Of a stretch of 64,000 nucleotides of DNA, positions 10,053-19,449 are shown in pieces. The notes beneath the pieces were generated by a model. The model worked only from the letters and a program-made list of their open reading frames with translations, did not search any database and was not told the DNA's origin. A program made the translations under genes and the position numbers. The DNA comes from Candidatus Berkelbacteria bacterium. GTDB taxonomy: Bacteria; Patescibacteriota; UBA1384; XYA2-FULL-43-10; 1-14-0-10-43-13. The DNA lies in assembly GCA_037143235.1 (NCBI GenBank), contig JBAWZC010000002.1, positions 47,186-111,185 of the forward strand, in the 5' to 3' direction. The stretch's first letter is position 1; each line of letters opens with the position of its first letter.

Positions 10053-10711
10053 ATTGCCTCCCCTGTCGCAAAGCTAGCTTTGCCGCTAATAGTAAATTTA
10101 AAGGAACTATTCTTGCCTTCAAGATCGTTACTGACCGAACCGATAGTAACTCCAGACAACTTATTCCAAGTCATCAAGGTCAGTGATTCATCAGCAATCG
10201 AACGATAATTCTTGGTCACACCGTCAAAGCTAAAGGTACCATCAGATGCCAAGGCCAGATTTTTTACCTGTATGCTAGAATTGACCTTGAGATAAAAACC
10301 ATCAAGAAATGTCCCGACTGAGACCGTTTTGTTGTTGGCATCGATCAGTTTGGTCGCAGCCAATTTAAAATCTTTGGCTTGCTTTTCAACTGCAGCATAG
10401 TCTGAACTGTTGATACTTTGAACGACATCGTTTCTCTCGTTTGTTTTGGCAGCGATATCTTGATCAAGGGACCTATTCATAAAATAAAGACCGCCAACGA
10501 CAACAAGAGAAAAAGCAGTAGTTATCCACAGGATGATGACCGGCCAATTGGTCGATTCCTTACTAACCTCGAACTGCAAATCTTCCAAGACACTATCTTT
10601 GCTCGATGTTGTCTTTTTTTCAGGAATAGGCATCGGCGAAGTTGTGTTTGGTTTGCTATTATCGCTACCAAAACTGCTACCGAAGCCACCATTGTTTTTT
10701 TCTGGTTCCAT
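10049..10711 (-). CDS. PilN-like pilus assembly protein
   Basis: 220 aa with a low-complexity cytoplasmic N-terminus, a single TM (WPVIILWITTAFSLVVVGGLYF) and a periplasmic domain. Confidence 0.45.
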   Translation of the reverse strand: MEPEKNNGGFGSSFGSDNSKPNTTSPMPIPEKKTTSSKDSVLEDLQFEVSKESTNWPVIILWITTAFSLVVVGGLYFMNRSLDQDIAAKTNERNDVVQSINSSDYAAVEKQAKDFKLAATKLIDANNKTVSVGTFLDGFYLKVNSSIQVKNLALASDGTFSFDGVTKNYRSIADESLTLMTWNKLSGVTIGSVSNDLEGKNSSFKFTISGKASFATGEAI

Positions 10712-14411: not shown

Positions 14412-15743
14412 CTATTGCCTGATCTCGTACCTTGGTTTGCCAAAAGGAATGCGATCAGGTGCGGACTGACGAGAGGTGAACATCGAAGCACTACAAACCG
14501 TATCCGCACCATAAATATCGTTGATCTTGTCCTGTGCCTTAGAAATGCCAGCTATTTTCCCCAAATCATCAAATATACTCAACTGTGAGGCTTTGCTGCT
14601 CGATAAATTAAAGAAGGAGATCGCCAGATGGATCGGCCGACTTTCAAATTTACAGTCAAGGAGAAGGTATTTCAGTTTTTCCCAAGCCGTAGCATCGTCA
14701 CAAAAAGGGACAAATTTTTTGCTGATATGAAAATTACTATGATCGAGAAATGAGATCGAGGCCATCAAGCCTCCTGCCAAAAAATTCCCCGCTCGCAGCC
14801 GATAGCTTGCTTTGAAAATTAACTTTCGCAGGATAGCCATCGCCCCTTCGCGAGTACGAAACTCTGGCGCTAGCACATGCGAGTGCCCAATCGTCTTAGT
14901 GGTCGTCAAATCCATTCGCGGAGAGCTGGTCGAATCTACCTGTGGTGAGCTTGTCGAATCCATCCATGGTGAGCCTGTCGAATCCACCTCATACCCCCGC
15001 AAACGAAAATACCAAGCCCTGCCACAATGTTTTAACCTCTGAGTCATTTCCCCCGCCGACAGATGAAATAATTGAAGCGGGGAAATTACGCCCAGACGAT
15101 TTAGCTGCGCTTCCATCCGCACATTGATACCAGTCAGATCAGTTAATTTGAGCTTGGAATAAAAATCTTCAAGTTCGTTTAATCGCACGATTGTAAAACC
15201 ATCTGGTTTTTGCCGCTCGGCTGCCATCTTGGCCAAGAATTTTGACGGACCCACGCCGACCGAGCAGCGCAAGCTATCCCCCACCTCGTCACGAATTTTT
15301 TTCTTTAATTTCGCAGCTATCTGTCTCGCCACCACTTCGTTTTGCTCGCATCGATCCAACTTCAGGGCAAATTCATCGACACTACACACCTCGAAATATG
15401 GCGTGACCGACTCGATCACCTTTTTTATCTTCTGGTGATAAGAAATATAGAGCGCTGGTCTCGCTTCGACAATTTCGATCTGTGGACAAAGCCTTTTAGC
15501 CTGTTCGTTTCGACAAATCCGCACACCCATCGCCTTGGCCTCATAGGAGGCAGCGATGATGCAACCAGATGGACCAGTGTACGGAGACACACCGATCGGC
15601 TGCCCCCTCAACTCTGGCCGAACCTGCTGTTCGACCGACGCAAAAAAAGAGTTCATATCAAGAAAAAGAGTTGAAAAATCTTTTGGTGGTTGCATAACAC
15701 CATCATACATCAAAAATCGAACAAATACCGAACATTTATCCAC
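14412..15743 (-). CDS. dinB: Y-family DNA polymerase IV (DinB/UmuC family)
   Basis: 443 aa. The N-terminal motif FLDMNSFFASVE corresponds to DinB's DMDAFFASVE, with palm/finger motifs. An in-frame 3x ~9-aa repeat insert (VDSTGSPWM-DSTSSPQV-DSTSSPRM) lies mid-protein. Confidence 0.75.
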   Translation of the reverse strand: MDKCSVFVRFLMYDGVMQPPKDFSTLFLDMNSFFASVEQQVRPELRGQPIGVSPYTGPSGCIIAASYEAKAMGVRICRNEQAKRLCPQIEIVEARPALYISYHQKIKKVIESVTPYFEVCSVDEFALKLDRCEQNEVVARQIAAKLKKKIRDEVGDSLRCSVGVGPSKFLAKMAAERQKPDGFTIVRLNELEDFYSKLKLTDLTGINVRMEAQLNRLGVISPLQLFHLSAGEMTQRLKHCGRAWYFRLRGYEVDSTGSPWMDSTSSPQVDSTSSPRMDLTTTKTIGHSHVLAPEFRTREGAMAILRKLIFKASYRLRAGNFLAGGLMASISFLDHSNFHISKKFVPFCDDATAWEKLKYLLLDCKFESRPIHLAISFFNLSSSKASQLSIFDDLGKIAGISKAQDKINDIYGADTVCSASMFTSRQSAPDRIPFGKPRYEIRQ

Positions 15744-16170: not shown

Positions 16171-16472
16171 ATTACCCCCTTTAAATATTATCTTTTTAAA
16201 TTATATTAACGCATTGATCAGAACAAGAGCTATGATCGATCCCAGAATGCATATCTATTTACTTTAATTTTAACCTATTTTGGGTGTTTTGGGCAAAATC
16301 TTCGTTGTCATAAATATTAACCTCTCCCGTAGTGATTTCCTTATCCTCGCTGAAGACAAGGTCGCTCTCGCAAATTTGCAAACAACTTAATAAATTCGAA
16401 CCTGTTAAATTGAAGGACTACCCACAACTTCAAGCGGTTGATATGCAAACAAAAGCAAAGTATCATTGAATT

Positions 16473-16727
16473 ATGAATCATATTTTAACAATAATTTTTG
16501 GTTTTTGGTTTACGGGCTGTTTCATTTTAATTATTCCCTGGGCAGCATTCTCGTTTTATACAGGACATTGGAGTGGATGGCGGGGCGAAGGATATAAAAA
16601 TACAAACGCGCCAGACTGGACTCTAACAGTACATCAGTTGTTAGAGTTTTGGTTTTATCTCCCGATGACAATTATTACATCCCCATTTGTTTTTATCGGC
16701 TGGTTGCTTAATAAAATATATAAATAA
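16473..16727 (+). CDS. small membrane protein
   Basis: 84 aa with two predicted TM helices. Its stop abuts the next start (TAAATG). Confidence 0.4.
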   Translation: MNHILTIIFGFWFTGCFILIIPWAAFSFYTGHWSGWRGEGYKNTNAPDWTLTVHQLLEFWFYLPMTIITSPFVFIGWLLNKIYK

Positions 16728-16901
16728 ATGAAATACGAATTTTTAACAGTGGAAGAAACAGCGAAAATTCTCAAGGTTACTAAGATGACCATTTATCGCT
16801 ATATCAAGGCTGGCAAGCTGACGGCTTATAAAGTTGGTAAAGATTTTAGGATAAACAAAGAAGAATTTGATAAGTTTTTAAATGAAATACGAAAGGGATA
16901 A
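16728..16901 (+). CDS. excisionase-family helix-turn-helix DNA-binding protein (Xis-like)
   Basis: 57 aa: MKYEFLTVEETAKILKVTKMTIYRYIKAGKLTAYKVGKDFRINKEEFDKFL, the classic excisionase/MerR-type HTH signature. Below the 60-aa cutoff of the ORF track. Confidence 0.6.
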   Translation: MKYEFLTVEETAKILKVTKMTIYRYIKAGKLTAYKVGKDFRINKEEFDKFLNEIRKG

Positions 16902-16904
16902 TTT

Positions 16905-17339
16905 ATGGATACATTATTTTTGATTATTACAGCACTTGGGGCTTTGGTTATTGGTATTCCATTGCTAATCTTTGTTTTAATCCCTTTGTGGTATATATGC
17001 ATTCCAATTATATTTACTATTCTACTTGGCTGGATTGGTTTATTTTTCGGAATTGGATTGGTGACTGTAATCTTCTGTGTTAAATGGATATTAACCGATA
17101 ATAACGACAAAGAAAAAGCACCGACAAAAAAGGAAGATAAACCAGATTCCAAAAAAGCATTTTTAGCTTTTATTACGGTATTCAGTATTTGGGGATTATC
17201 AAATTGGCTCTTCACTGATATTTTAGTACGACTTCACGGAACAAATAACGATTCAGACGGTTTGCTAATAATTATTTTTATGGCAGTGTCTGGCTTTGCC
17301 AGCTATAAGGTTGGGCAAAAAATGATAGAGGCCAAATAG
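16905..17339 (+). CDS. membrane protein (4 TM), unknown function
   Basis: 144 aa, hydrophobic, with a Lys-rich loop. Confidence 0.45.
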   Translation: MDTLFLIITALGALVIGIPLLIFVLIPLWYICIPIIFTILLGWIGLFFGIGLVTVIFCVKWILTDNNDKEKAPTKKEDKPDSKKAFLAFITVFSIWGLSNWLFTDILVRLHGTNNDSDGLLIIIFMAVSGFASYKVGQKMIEAK

Positions 17340-17343
17340 CAGA

Positions 17344-17655
17344 ATGAAATCAATTATTCTTGCCAGAGTATCAACAGAAGACCAAAAAGAGGCTGGCAAT
17401 TCATTGCCCACTCAAATTAAGCGTCTGAAAGATTATTGCAAAAGAAAAGATTTGGAGGTTATCAAAAAATTCAGCTTTGACGAATCAGCCTATAAAACCA
17501 AAAGAGATAAGTTCGATCGTATTCTTGAGTATCCGAAAGGCAACAAAGTAAAGATTGCTGTTTGCTTTGATAAGGTTGATTACTTTTCTAGAGCACCTGG
17601 GGACGCTCCCCAATTAGATACGGTTTTTGCAATAAGAAAATTTCTCAGAGAATAA
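17344..17655 (+). pseudogene. serine recombinase (resolvase/invertase) N-terminal fragment, truncated
   Basis: 103 aa, MKSIILARVSTEDQ..., the catalytic Ser motif (Y/L-ARVST-x2-Q) of serine recombinases. The ORF ends after about half the catalytic domain and lacks a DNA-binding domain. Confidence 0.6.
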
Positions 17656-17674
17656 CTCGATCAGTTGACCATCA

Positions 17675-17708
17675 AAACAAACACCTCACATGTATGAGGT
17701 GTTTGTTT
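17675..17708. terminator. conserved hairpin terminator (same family as 15769, 40017, 42433)
   Basis: aaacaaacacctcacatgtatgaggtgtttgtttt with a 14-bp perfect stem. Confidence 0.6.
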
Positions 17709-17736
17709 TGGCAGAGGCAAGAGGAATCGAACCCCT
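17709..17736 (-). other. tRNA 3' fragment (T-arm + acceptor 3' strand + CCA), possibly an att-site duplication or the 3' exon of a split tRNA
   Basis: Minus strand AGGGG-TTCGATT-CCTCT-TGCCTCT-G-CCA. No contiguous D or anticodon arm upstream. Confidence 0.4.
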
Positions 17737-17777
17737 AATAAAGGTTTTGCCTGTCCTCCGTAGCATTAAATCAATTT

Positions 17778-17851
17778 TGGCAGGCCTTAGAGGAGTCGGA
17801 CCTCTGACTAAGGTTTTGGAGACCTTCGTTATACCGCTTAACTAAAGGCCT
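17778..17851 (-). tRNA. tRNA-Trp(CCA)-like, 74 nt, unusual T-loop
   Basis: Hand fold: AGGCCTT/TA/GTTA-AGCGGTA-TAAC/G/AAGGT-CTCCAAA-ACCTT/AGTC/AGAGG-TCCGACT-CCTCT/AAGGCCT/G/CCA. Anticodon CCA. The T-loop has C at position 55. Confidence 0.5.
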
Positions 17852-17880
17852 ATCAAAATTGATTTGAGAAGGAGGAGAGA

Positions 17881-17939
17881 CCTCCAGCCTACACTTCAAG
17901 CTACGGCCGGCAAGCCGTTATACCATTTAACTATACCCC
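17881..17939 (-). other. tRNA 5'-half-like sequence (acceptor + D-arm) lacking a contiguous anticodon/T arm
   Basis: Minus strand AGGGGTA-TA-GTTA-AATGGTA-TAAC-G-GCTTGCCGGCCG... The acceptor strand AGGGGTA can pair (with G-U pairs) with TGCCTCT of the fragment at 17709-17736. Confidence 0.35.
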
Positions 17940-18339
17940 TAAAGACAAGCAATAAGCTTGCAAGCAGTAAGAATTAAGCTGAATACACTTAAACACTTAC
18001 CGGATTACTTGCCACAAAGTGGCCCCTTTGGGGCTTACCAGCCTGTCTTACTTTGTTTCTTTGTGATTGGTGCGAACTTTGCAAGTTTTGCAATACTTTG
18101 GCAGTTCGATCCGCTTGATAACGTCTTGCCCCTTCATACGCTTCTCAGTATGGTAACCTCTGCTTTTGCATGTTTCACATTCCAATGTGATCAATTTTCT
18201 AGCTTCCTTGGCCATGGATTCCTTGTTTCTATTACCCCGGATTTAATCCGGCATCTATTTAATGTTTCTCTGGATCCTGAATCAAGTTCAGGATGACATA
18301 CATTTTTTTGTCCCGCATAGCCCGTAGGGCGACGTGAGA

Positions 18340-18414
18340 TGGAGCCGATGGAGGGAATCGAACCCGCAACCTTCACTTTACAAAAGTGTTGCTCTACCAT
18401 TGAGCTACATCGGC
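18340..18414 (-). tRNA. tRNA-Thr(TGT)
   Basis: GCCGATG/TA/GCTC-AATGGTA-GAGC/A/ACACT-TTTGTAA-AGTGA/AGGTT/GCGGG-TTCGATT-CCCTC/CATCGGC/T/CCA. One mismatch each in the anticodon stem and T stem. Confidence 0.6.
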
Positions 18415-19010
18415 ATTTTAAATTTTTCTATCCACCCAACAATAACCTTAAGCAAATTCTTGTCGGAATATCTCAAAGAGGCCGTCCCATACTTTGATAT
18501 TTTCTTGTAACTTCCATTTGAATGGGCGTGACAATATGTTTTGCTAAACTGGCTTGTGGGAATTTTCGTACGATCAGACCAATATTTTTTCAGCTCTATC
18601 TCGTTTTGGTCATCGTATATATGAAGCAATAACCTAAGCCTCTGCTCCGACACTCCACATATCTCTCTCAAAAAACGAAGGAAATAACTCACCATATTAG
18701 GATCACTGTTGCTAAAAACAACACTATTGCCGTCTTTCGTGCCCTCGCCCCAGTACAGCATAACTCCAGCTATGCGCAAAACCTCTTGTTCTGGAGTTAA
18801 ATTTGTCAACACATTGCAAGAGTGTCTTCCAAATTTTGTTTCATGCAACAATCGACTTGCACTACTGTGATCCCTTCTGGGAACATTGCCAGCTATCAGC
18901 ACCTGATTTATACGAGACGATCCGATTCCAATTTTATCAGAAATTTGCTTGACTGAAAAACCAGACTGGTACATTTCAACGATTAATTTTGTTTCATGCA
19001 TACTTAACAT
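18405..19010 (-). CDS. HTH-domain protein, possible degenerate LAGLIDADG-type homing endonuclease
   Basis: 201 aa with an N-terminal HTH (FSVKQISDKIGIGSSRINQVL). MLYWGEGTKDGNSVVF resembles a LAGLIDADG/GDG motif. It sits between tRNA genes and its 5' end overlaps tRNA-Thr by 10 nt. Confidence 0.4.
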   Translation of the reverse strand: MLSMHETKLIVEMYQSGFSVKQISDKIGIGSSRINQVLIAGNVPRRDHSSASRLLHETKFGRHSCNVLTNLTPEQEVLRIAGVMLYWGEGTKDGNSVVFSNSDPNMVSYFLRFLREICGVSEQRLRLLLHIYDDQNEIELKKYWSDRTKIPTSQFSKTYCHAHSNGSYKKISKYGTASLRYSDKNLLKVIVGWIEKFKMPM

Positions 19011-19059
19011 AACAATGTTATACCAGACCTACTGTTATGCAACAACTATTTGAGTCGAG

Positions 19060-19145
19060 TGGTGCTGGGAGCAGGATTCGAACCTACGAAGGCATAAGCC
19101 GCCTGATTTACAGTCAGGTGCATTTGACCGCTTTGCTATCCCAGC
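19060..19145 (-). tRNA. tRNA-Tyr(GTA), long variable arm
   Basis: GCTGGGA/TA/GCAA-AGCGGTCAAA-TGC/ACCTGA-CTGTAAA-TCAGG/CGGCTTATGCCTTCG/TAGGT-TCGAATC-CTGC/TCCCAGC/A/CCA. Confidence 0.65.
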
Positions 19146-19373
19146 ATGCATCTCGCATTTCACCATTTCATCACTTTTTCATTTAAACATTTATAAATAA
19201 ATGACTAAATGATTAATTGATTAAATGGATGCATTTGGCCCTTCGACAAACTCAGGGTCATTCGACTTTACGACCAAGTTAATTAACTCACAGAATGGTT
19301 CACCATCCCTCGACCATGAGCCTCTCGGGATCGAATGGTGAGCGAGAGACCAGATTGTTGGTCTCGAGTCGAA

Positions 19374-19449
19374 TGGAGCCGTTGACGGGAATTGGACCCG
19401 TGACCTCGCCCTTACCAAGGGCGTGCTCTACCAACTGAGCTACAACGGC
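19374..19449 (-). tRNA. tRNA-Thr(GGT)
   Basis: GCCGTTG/TA/GCTC-AGTTGGTA-GAGC/A/CGCCC-TTGGTAA-GGGCG/AGGTC/ACGGG-TCCAATT-CCCGT/CAACGGC/T/CCA. All stems are perfect. The T-loop has C at position 55. Confidence 0.7.

Follow-up and report, generated by a model that had tools for sequence, protein, structure and literature searches.

A probable serine-recombinase element remnant beside a predicted native tRNA-Trp gene nested within another tRNA-Trp in Candidatus Berkelbacteria

The DNA analysed here, referred to as the window, is a stretch of 64,000 nucleotides (nt) of a contig from a metagenome-assembled genome of Candidatus Berkelbacteria, a member of the Candidate Phyla Radiation (CPR, Patescibacteria). 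Between positions 16329 and 17655 it carries a block of plus-strand genes that we interpret as the decayed, non-functional remnant of a small integrative element of the serine-recombinase type, truncated at both ends. Next to it, on the minus strand, lies a tRNA-Trp gene whose anticodon loop, as judged from the sequence, is split between C34/C35 and A36 by an insert containing a complete second tRNA-Trp. We assign a probability of about 0.7 to this joint reading of an element remnant on one side and native nested tRNA genes on the other; the remnant and the nested tRNA are two unrelated things lying side by side. An earlier note on the window had proposed a decayed mobile element and had taken a tRNA 3' fragment beside it for a duplicated attachment (att) site. 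The former proposal is borne out by homologues that share a conserved architecture with a helix-turn-helix (HTH) gene upstream of the recombinase, the latter is not.

Nearly all genes between 462 and 21811 are located on the minus strand, and the open reading frames (ORFs) from 16473 to 17655 constitute the only plus-strand block in that region, as the note had observed. The GC content of the segment from 16329 to 17655 is 31-36%, compared with 42-48% in its flanks. The last ORF of the block (17344-17655, plus strand) encodes a truncated large serine recombinase of 103 amino acids (aa). It covers positions 2-82 of the 145-position Resolvase model (Pfam PF00239, E 2.8e-11) and contains the motif ARVSTEDQ. 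Codons 1-83 (up to position 17592) are homologous to recombinases of 485-540 aa, to which they are 75-82% identical (82% for the closest relative, at locus L003; related loci are designated by L and a number), and are followed by an unrelated tail of 20 codons. The part beyond residue 83, comprising the Recombinase domain, a zinc ribbon and a coiled coil of about 300 aa in total, was absent from the whole window in tblastn searches with six full-length relatives. Since the ORF ends at 103 aa and no later part is encoded, the gene is a remnant rather than a working member of its family, and the size of the related ORFs indicates that the window keeps about 17% of a large serine recombinase. In addition, the conserved motif VDR(L/F)SR reads VDYFSR in the window, the arginine, which is catalytic in serine recombinases, being replaced by tyrosine.

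Upstream of the recombinase lies an intact backbone gene of 57 aa (16728-16901, plus strand), which the note had assigned to the excisionase family. Its product matches the excisionase/MerR-like Pfam family HTH_17 (PF12728, E 1.7e-16, 60.6 bits for a cut-off of 27) as well as excisionase families of PHROG, and would be a regulator or an excision factor. It is 88% identical in amino acids and 89% in nucleotides to the corresponding gene of the intact-looking element at L003. Between the two genes, in the cargo position, an orphan ORF of 144 aa (16905-17339, plus strand) encodes a putative membrane protein with hydrophobic windows (Kyte-Doolittle >= 1.6) at residues 1-65, 85-103 and 119-137. It found only itself among 5.8 billion proteins, and had no match in Pfam, PHROG or NCBIfam nor in the 79 related loci described below. 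A second hydrophobic orphan ORF of 84 aa, with two such windows, precedes the HTH_17 gene (16473-16727, plus strand); it likewise lacks matches in Pfam, PHROG and NCBIfam, and tblastn matches in the 79 loci. Both membrane ORFs were thus correctly recognised in the note. A promoter-like sequence, TTGATA-17-TATCAT (16438-16466, plus strand), agreeing with the consensus at 10 of 12 positions, lies upstream of the 84-aa ORF; it is a consensus match only, and such sites are as frequent in this region as expected from shuffled sequences.

The note had overlooked a further element gene, the fifth, of which a remnant lies at 16329-16451. The element at L003 encodes a product of 245 aa whose residues 204-244 match this segment by tblastn with 46% identity (E 1.4e-6), so that the last 41 or so codons of a backbone gene of about 245 aa are preserved on the plus strand (16329-16469), with the 84-aa ORF in the variable spacer between it and the HTH_17 gene. 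Homology with L003 is confined to 16329-16451, 16721-16880 and 17341-17592. This restriction to three places in comparison with the best relative indicates a family member truncated at both ends and carrying orphan cargo, in which the three backbone genes keep the order and the spacings typical of the family. Deletions would have removed the left part of the element, recombinase codons 84 to about 500 and the right junction, and the remnant would no longer be able to move.

The intact element that the note had suggested looking for exists in related genomes, where full-length serine recombinases with an HTH_17 gene upstream are found. Scanning one genome per GTDB species yielded 346 relatives of the recombinase N-terminus, nearly all of them labelled Patescibacteria/CPR, and 79 related loci with recombinase ORFs typically of 485-540 aa were retained. 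The common architecture consists of a protein of about 245 aa (59 of the 79 loci), an HTH_17 gene of 55-57 aa (61 of 79) situated 29-904 nt past it, a cargo slot of 6-5411 nt, within which range the 443-nt slot of the window falls, and a recombinase of about 500 aa. The protein of about 245 aa had no sequence match in Pfam, PHROG, NCBIfam or PDB, whereas the full-length recombinases bear Recombinase and zinc-ribbon domains. Recognisable cargo is related to DNA modification or restriction: Dcm with Vsr, Dam with a HARE-HTH protein, and a methyltransferase with a helicase/restriction-like protein. Among 66 full-length cases, 44 have a recombinase ORF that extends 8-64 nt into the 3' end of a tRNA gene in convergent orientation; this tRNA is tRNA-Asn 35 times, and Gln, His, Asp and Tyr tRNAs are also targeted. 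We found no published description of these elements in a literature search of incomplete coverage, in which absence is not proof, and the family is apparently both large and undescribed in CPR bacteria.

Initial protein matches to the recombinase were all at most 178 aa long, but a systematic split of the protein at about 170 aa was discarded in view of the ORFs of 485-540 aa at the genome loci. No full-length homologue of about 103 aa was found either, the short matches being contig ends, one adapter-derived tail or frameshifted pseudogenes. The L003 recombinase, the closest to that of the window, is itself frameshifted near residue 165 (10485-10519), where an ORF of 172 aa overlaps one of at least 275 aa in another frame, which reflects either a pseudogene or an assembly error. 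In the Levybacteria loci L005-L008 a second element (17403-19426) comprises a 130-aa MerR/HTH_17 protein followed by a 529-aa serine recombinase, the last 28 nt of which overlap tRNA-Asn, and a pseudogenised family recombinase, split into ORFs of 167, 146 and 65 aa, lies a few kb away. At L039 (2149-20249) two 100% identical family elements of 9318 nt are arranged in tandem after the 3' end of another, different recombinase, and each recombinase ORF crosses the copy junction into the same 97-nt left-end sequence of the next copy. This left end starts with GCTCC, like the reverse complement of a tRNA-Asn 3' end, and the copy junction may correspond to an attP-like junction, in which case it would help to locate the crossover.

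Beyond the element remnant, the tRNA fragment that the note had placed at 17709-17736 is real and located on the opposite strand, but it is longer, reaching back to the anticodon at 17749. It constitutes the 3' half of an outer tRNA-Trp (17709-17749, minus strand), from C35/A36 to A76, starting with CAAAACC and comprising a T arm (AGGGG/TTCGATT/CCTCT), an acceptor strand (TGCCTCT), G73 and CCA. Taken alone, it is called as a tRNA by neither ARAGORN nor Rfam. Contrary to the note, which had described it as being without the rest of the tRNA, a matching 5' part is present on the same strand at 17940-17915 and 17884-17877, beyond an intact tRNA-Trp. The first piece (17916-17940, minus strand; AGGGGTATAGTTAAATGGTATAACG at 17940-17916) contains the acceptor strand AGGGGTA, U8, A9, the D arm GTTA-AATGGTA-TAAC and G26, and the similarity between the window and L205 starts at 17943 by BLAST. 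The two acceptor strands, the 5' one at 17940-17934, form 7 of 7 pairs (AGGGGUA/UGCCUCU, two of them G-U). A weak match of the fragment to cyano_tmRNA (10.8 bits) had raised a tmRNA-like or minihelix reading, which was dropped once the 5' half was found.

The outer 5' part is continued by the 5' strand of the anticodon stem and CUC (GGAGGTCTC at 17885-17877, with GAGGT-CTC at 17884-17877) and by the 5' junction motif TCCTCC (17876-17871), together spanning 17871-17885 on the minus strand and identified by alignment with L205, L148 and L157. Between position 26 and this stem lies an extra insertion of about 30 nt (17886-17915, minus strand), which begins with GCTTGCC, similar to the junction motif GCCTGCC; it is about 67% identical in L205 and absent from L148 and L157, which have D-loop insertions instead. 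The insert proper contains the inner, intact tRNA-Trp(CCA) (17778-17851, minus strand), detected by ARAGORN and by the Rfam tRNA model with 63.4 bits, all 21 of its 21 stem pairs being Watson-Crick. Minimum free energy folding predicts a 12-bp helix between a leader strand at 17854-17865 and a trailer strand at 17768-17779 that includes C75 and A76 (both minus strand). Downstream of the inner tRNA the order is thus the 12-nt trailer complementary to the leader, GGAGGACAGG and the fragment, the 3' junction motif GGAGGACAGGC at 17749-17759 (minus strand) being the window variant of a near-invariant GGCGGGCAGGC. The fold of the whole unit pairs the outer ends as well as leader and trailer, and in L148, L205 and L157 the central bases of the equivalent leader-trailer helices differ while their pairing is retained. 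When the window pieces are joined in silico, which requires two removals, ARAGORN calls a 74-nt tRNA-Trp(CCA) with 21 of 21 stem pairs, and the same procedure yields tRNA-Trp(CCA) in L205 and L148. The T loop of the inner tRNA (17800-17794) reads UCCGACU, with C at position 55, where U is near-universal, as is also the case in L148 and L157; that of the outer one is the canonical UUCGAUU.

A hairpin with an A-tract and a T-tract (17674-17709; -24.9 kcal/mol, z -6.5 relative to shuffled sequences) follows the outer CCA directly. The note had reported it as a 14-bp terminator; the hairpin is confirmed, but its stem has 17 bp and is stronger. A simple terminator scanner missed it because the T and A tracts are part of the stem. 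In L148, L157 and L205 a hairpin likewise directly abuts the outer 3' end, its sequence being unrelated from locus to locus. This recurrent position identifies the hairpin of the window as the native terminator of the rpmG-tRNA-Trp unit, predicted to terminate in both directions, and the chromosome proper therefore extends to at least 17674. The end of the element remnant lies between 17592 and about 17673. The 80 nt between the remnant and the hairpin resemble nothing that was tested, and a second decayed tRNA 3' relic at 17593-17673 was rejected, its score not exceeding that of shuffled sequences.

The same nested arrangement occurs elsewhere in CPR bacteria. L148, from other Berkelbacteria (RicT/PSP1 57% identical), has the same tRNA/rpmG series with the same three-part layout: about 20 nt past the intact tRNA-Trp follow CAGGCAAAACC, a T arm, an acceptor strand, CCA and a hairpin, and upstream lies a sequence resembling a tRNA 5' half, the acceptor strand of which pairs with this downstream piece. 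Past this first outer 3' half and its hairpin, L148 contains a further tRNA-Trp 3' piece (14740-14870, ending in CCGACTCCTCTAGCCCCTGCCA) with a hairpin of its own, which looks like another layer of the same process. We scanned metagenomes of the Joint Genome Institute (JGI) for GGTCTCCAAAACC followed after 40-70 nt by AGGCAAAACC and obtained 65 loci, of which 52 are unique. Chance or unrelated matches account for about a dozen, and most of the others are nested; 32 loci encode L33 and 33 have the 5' junction motif. Altogether, nesting with near-invariant junction motifs was seen in about 40 distinct metagenomic loci without the element, counts that rest on motif rules and on reading of the sequences. 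As the scan required AGGCAAAACC, the apparent prevalence is biased towards units with that motif. We found no account of a tRNA nested in tRNA-Trp in CPR bacteria in the literature, the coverage of which was again incomplete, so that absence is not proof.

In the cleanest class an outer exon 1 of 34 nt ending in CUCC is followed by CCGCCUGC(C) with a short leader, by an inner tRNA-Trp that is 72-74 nt long, by a trailer with GGCGGGCAGGC, and by an outer exon 2 starting with AAAACC. Removal of the 106-119-nt insert yields a tRNA-Trp recognised by ARAGORN in 14 loci, plus one with the anticodon UCA. The latter is L182, where exon 1 has CUUC instead of CUCC, probably through decay, so that the joined anticodon would read UGA. 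For 12 units, the RNAalifold prediction is a double cloverleaf connected through a helix of the junction motifs, with compensatory changes in 34 of 53 pairs and invariant junction columns. With Rfam 15 only the inner tRNAs were recognised, and no intron family matched (E <= 10 for the window region, E <= 1 for five loci). In most other loci the outer D or T loop holds extra hairpin insertions. GC-rich hairpins of the form (U)CCGCC-N3-6-GGCGG(A) or CCUGCCUGCC-GGCAGGCAGG are located in the outer D, T or anticodon loops of L150, L148, L157, L152, L163, L177, L188, L202, L207 and L208, and in L171 and L178 the anticodon loop bears a hairpin with no tRNA inside. The possibility that the CCGCC...GGCGG and CCTGCC...GGCAGG hairpins form a dispersed repeat family was abandoned, as there are 0-2 per locus and none in the window.

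These data bear directly on the proposal of the note, according to which the element integrated into tRNA-Trp and thereby displaced or duplicated the 3' end now seen as the fragment. The fragment does have the character of a tRNA-Trp 3' half, complete with G73 and CCA, and is placed between tRNA-Trp and what is left of the recombinase; the element family, moreover, targets tRNA 3' ends that are convergent with the recombinase gene. However, it is identical to the 3' half of the neighbouring tRNA-Trp at only 30 of 41 positions, and its acceptor strand, TGCCTCT as compared with AAGGCCT, forms only 4 of 7 pairs with the 5' strand of that neighbour; the 26 nt between tRNA and fragment leave no space for an element. 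A parental att tRNA did not emerge from exact 22-mer searches of viral and metagenome contigs, and blastn-short on all related loci gave no match outside the same organism. In intact family members a displaced fragment is lacking: the far ends of 33 such elements contained matches to the tRNA of only 6-20 nt, no better than chance, and long direct repeats at the element ends are absent. Serine recombinases exchange strands at a 2-bp core, and the lack of a displaced tRNA piece is what would be expected of them. Furthermore, the hairpin separates recombinase and fragment, whereas the ORFs of intact elements overlap the tRNA, without a hairpin in between. Finally, fragment and hairpin occur, with a matching 5' half upstream, in L148, L157, L205 and about 30 further element-free loci. 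We therefore consider an att origin extremely improbable and take the fragment and the hairpin to be native chromosome. The note had itself mentioned a genuine 3' exon of a split tRNA as the alternative; the fragment comes close to this as the 3' part of an interrupted tRNA-Trp, any splicing of the outer gene being hypothetical.

How the remnant came to lie beside the terminator is a separate matter. In the window the recombinase ORF does not end within a convergent tRNA 3' end, its own 3' end and the junction being deleted and the hairpin intervening. The window copy either integrated elsewhere and was moved beside the terminator by deletion of its 3' end, or used a site that has since been lost. 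The neighbourhood is a plausible landing zone, as synteny also breaks at tRNA 3' ends in related loci. Some results weigh against our interpretation: no family member was seen beside tRNA-Trp, and RicT/PSP1 homologues, the closest being at most 61% identical to the window protein, led to no close relative and no empty site. Exact-protein look-ups of L33 and of the 115-aa neighbour, aimed at an empty site or a strain variant, matched nothing beyond the same organism. L145 and L147 had no tRNA cluster on the DNA examined, and L157, L205 and L148 showed zero similarity to the window downstream of the terminator by BLAST.

As to which of the two tRNA genes works, the inner tRNAs have 21 of 21 stem pairs in all 14 loci, compared with an average of 19.8 of 21 for the outer ones, which show A-C mismatches in their acceptor stems; in the RNAalifold table the outer stems account for 17 broken cells, the inner stems for none. 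As the inner stems are always perfect and the outer ones eroded, the outer gene is probably a relic, and the inner tRNA-Trp is presumed to be the working gene. The tRNA-Trp types nest in either order: the outer tRNA of L175 resembles the inner one of L182 (92%) and the outer of L182 the inner of L175 (86%), and similar matches link the outer of L154 with the inner of L206 (89%) and the outer of L164 with the inner of L201 (90%). L175 and L187 are 100% identical over about 620 nt upstream and diverge only between the outer D loop and the trailer, similarity being wholly lost exactly at the outer 3' end; both carry a third, older 5' relic upstream. Taken together, the unequal erosion, the loop insertions, the reciprocal nesting and the layers in L175 and L187 favour repeated insertion or exchange of a tRNA-bearing cassette at the DNA level. 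Such a cassette would have CCGCCTGCC and GGCGGGCAGGC as its boundaries. The inner tRNA would be released from the rpmG-tRNA transcript by RNase P and 3' processing, aided by the leader-trailer helix, while the outer halves would persist as a slowly eroding shell, and repeated rounds of insertion would produce onion-like layers and reciprocal nestings.

Several observations argue against a shell that is purely a relic. The junction motifs are near-invariant amid variable surroundings, and in the window, L205 and L148 each of the four outer stems retains full pairing. Between the window and L205 the outer 3' half matches at 38 of 41 positions, although rpmG is only 69% identical, and the outer pair 7:66 has changed from A-U to U-A. 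The change of the 3' motif from GGCGGG to GGAGGA is mirrored by that of the 5' motif from CCCGCC to UCCUCC, so that six possible pairs are kept. These features make some structural constraint likely, and the RNA or DNA structure concerned could be a stalk for RNA processing, a signal for splicing or a recognition site on the DNA. Against the cassette itself, no transposase or recombinase was found to be consistently linked to the nested unit, and any route from a resident tRNA to a cassette would be hypothetical.

The invariant junctions would also be accounted for if the outer tRNA-Trp were a functional intron-containing gene, in which excision of the insert of about 107-150 nt, itself the precursor of a tRNA-Trp, and ligation of the exons gave two tRNAs from one gene. 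The helix of CCGCCUGCC and GGCGGGCAGGC would then serve as a signal for a hypothetical bacterial endonuclease and ligase, or for RNase P/Z and a ligase, in a process unrelated to group I or II introns and to the archaeal endonuclease. Precise removal in silico restores CUCCAAA and a canonical tRNA-Trp in the 14 loci, the window, L205 and L148, the outer stems of the Berkelbacteria are conserved with a compensatory change, and CPR tRNAs with anticodon-loop introns at 35/36 are known (PMC13011429). Nevertheless, neither a group I/II signature nor, by eye, a U(-1)/G(omega) pair or a 3-4-3 bulge-helix-bulge was detected; erosion affects the outer stems in 9 cases among the best 14 and the inner stems never; most other loci have extra hairpins in D or T loops; the outer gene of the window would need two separate excisions; and with identical anticodons in both tRNAs the outer one would be redundant. 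We judge splicing of this kind improbable. Alternatively, the outer halves might serve together with the junction helix as a non-decoding, tRNA-like processing scaffold without any ligation, much as the processing stems and intervening sequences of rRNA do; the cloverleaf would present the inner pre-tRNA on a stalk, separate it from the rpmG mRNA through RNase P cleavage at the outer 5' end and set the 3' end. The invariant junction motifs and the covarying leader-trailer helix fit such a role, as do the start of conservation exactly at the outer 5' end, its stop at the terminator, and the tolerance of insertions in loops while stems are largely kept. It is less easily reconciled with the A-C mismatches in the outer acceptor stems of several lineages and with L157, where the outer 5' half forms just 5 of 7 pairs. 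Moreover, invariance of the junctions rather than covariation points to recognition by a protein, which is not specific to a scaffold, and reciprocal nesting and layered relics require events at the DNA level in any case. We regard this scaffold as possible, if rather unlikely, and retain the eroding outer gene around a working inner one as the preferred explanation.

The minus-strand series around these features consists of tRNA-Thr(GGU), tRNA-Tyr, an ORF of 201 aa, tRNA-Thr(UGU), rpmG (L33) and tRNA-Trp (17851-17778). The 201-aa ORF (18405-19010, minus strand), between tRNA-Tyr and tRNA-Thr(UGU), overlaps the 5' end of the latter by 10 nt, and its position is conserved in L148 (196 aa) and L205. 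It shows weak N-terminal HTH matches (Cbp1-like, PHROG DNA-binding) and, by eye, a LAGLIDADG-like motif, LYWGEGTKDG, and may be a free-standing or domesticated homing endonuclease within the tRNA cluster. Further along, a DinB/ImpB-type polymerase ORF (14412-15743, minus strand) contains an internal low-complexity repeat, VDSTGSPWMDSTSSPQVDSTSSPRMD, between its catalytic and C-terminal domains.

By itself the remnant represents ordinary genome decay, but it leads to a family of CPR elements with restriction-modification cargo at tRNA 3' ends. The more important result is a tRNA nested in the anticodon loop of a tRNA of the same specificity, an arrangement that is recurrent in dozens of CPR lineages and not seen by standard annotation tools. 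If the outer gene is a relic, a site-specific process would place a new copy of an essential tRNA gene inside the old one and so replace it, as a self-perpetuating insertion that is hard to lose and leaves layered molecular fossils. Expression of the outer gene would instead imply that bacteria splice or process tRNAs in a new way. Either way, such pieces should not be taken for integration scars when islands are mapped in CPR genomes.

Like the large serine recombinase elements and prophages of the phiC31, Bxb1, A118, TnpX and SCCmec Ccr type, the CPR family has an N-terminal Resolvase domain with an RVSTxxQ motif, followed in full-length relatives by Recombinase and zinc-ribbon domains, and a recombinase located at one end of a small cargo-carrying element without long direct end repeats. 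It differs from them in targeting tRNA 3' ends, in recombinase ORFs that terminate inside the tRNA or inside the left end of the next tandem copy, and in its fixed partners, the 245-aa and HTH_17 proteins; the window copy differs further in keeping only 17% of the recombinase. tRNA-targeting islands with tyrosine integrases are the classical source of duplicated tRNA 3' fragments. The window block resembles them in its position beside a tRNA cluster, its anomalous GC content, its cargo and its excisionase-like HTH protein, but has neither a tyrosine integrase nor a duplicate of the resident tRNA 3' end, the fragment being part of a different, interrupted tRNA-Trp that is also present in island-free genomes.

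For the nested tRNA, archaeal and algal disrupted tRNAs (those with bulge-helix-bulge introns, the split tRNAs of Nanoarchaeum and the permuted ones of Cyanidioschyzon) offer a parallel in that their halves lie apart in the genome with a GC-rich helix at the junction. The archaeal tRNA-Trp intron also houses another functional RNA, a C/D box RNA. The nested unit is nonetheless bacterial, its halves are co-linear in cis and its outer gene is eroded; on inspection only, its consensus has an internal loop (CUC/CAAA) and then an 8-bp helix with a C-A mismatch, rather than the 3-4-3 geometry of the bulge-helix-bulge, and to our knowledge no splicing endonuclease has been described in CPR bacteria. 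Closer in phylogeny are the group I introns at position 35/36 in the anticodon loops of Patescibacteria tRNA-Asn and tRNA-Asp (Nakagawa et al. 2026, PMC13011429), a report in which tRNA-Trp is not mentioned. The nested tRNA-Trp shares with them the phylum, the location in the anticodon loop (34/35 or 35/36) and an interrupted gene that is invisible to ARAGORN and Rfam. It departs from them in that the insert is 106-150 nt long, lacks a ribozyme core according to Rfam, follows a 5' exon ending in C instead of U, and consists mostly of a complete tRNA of the same specificity. A possible analogue is provided by the intervening sequences of rRNA, helix-bounded inserts that are cut from a structured RNA by RNase III without ligation, with the difference that in the nested unit the insert is itself the useful product.

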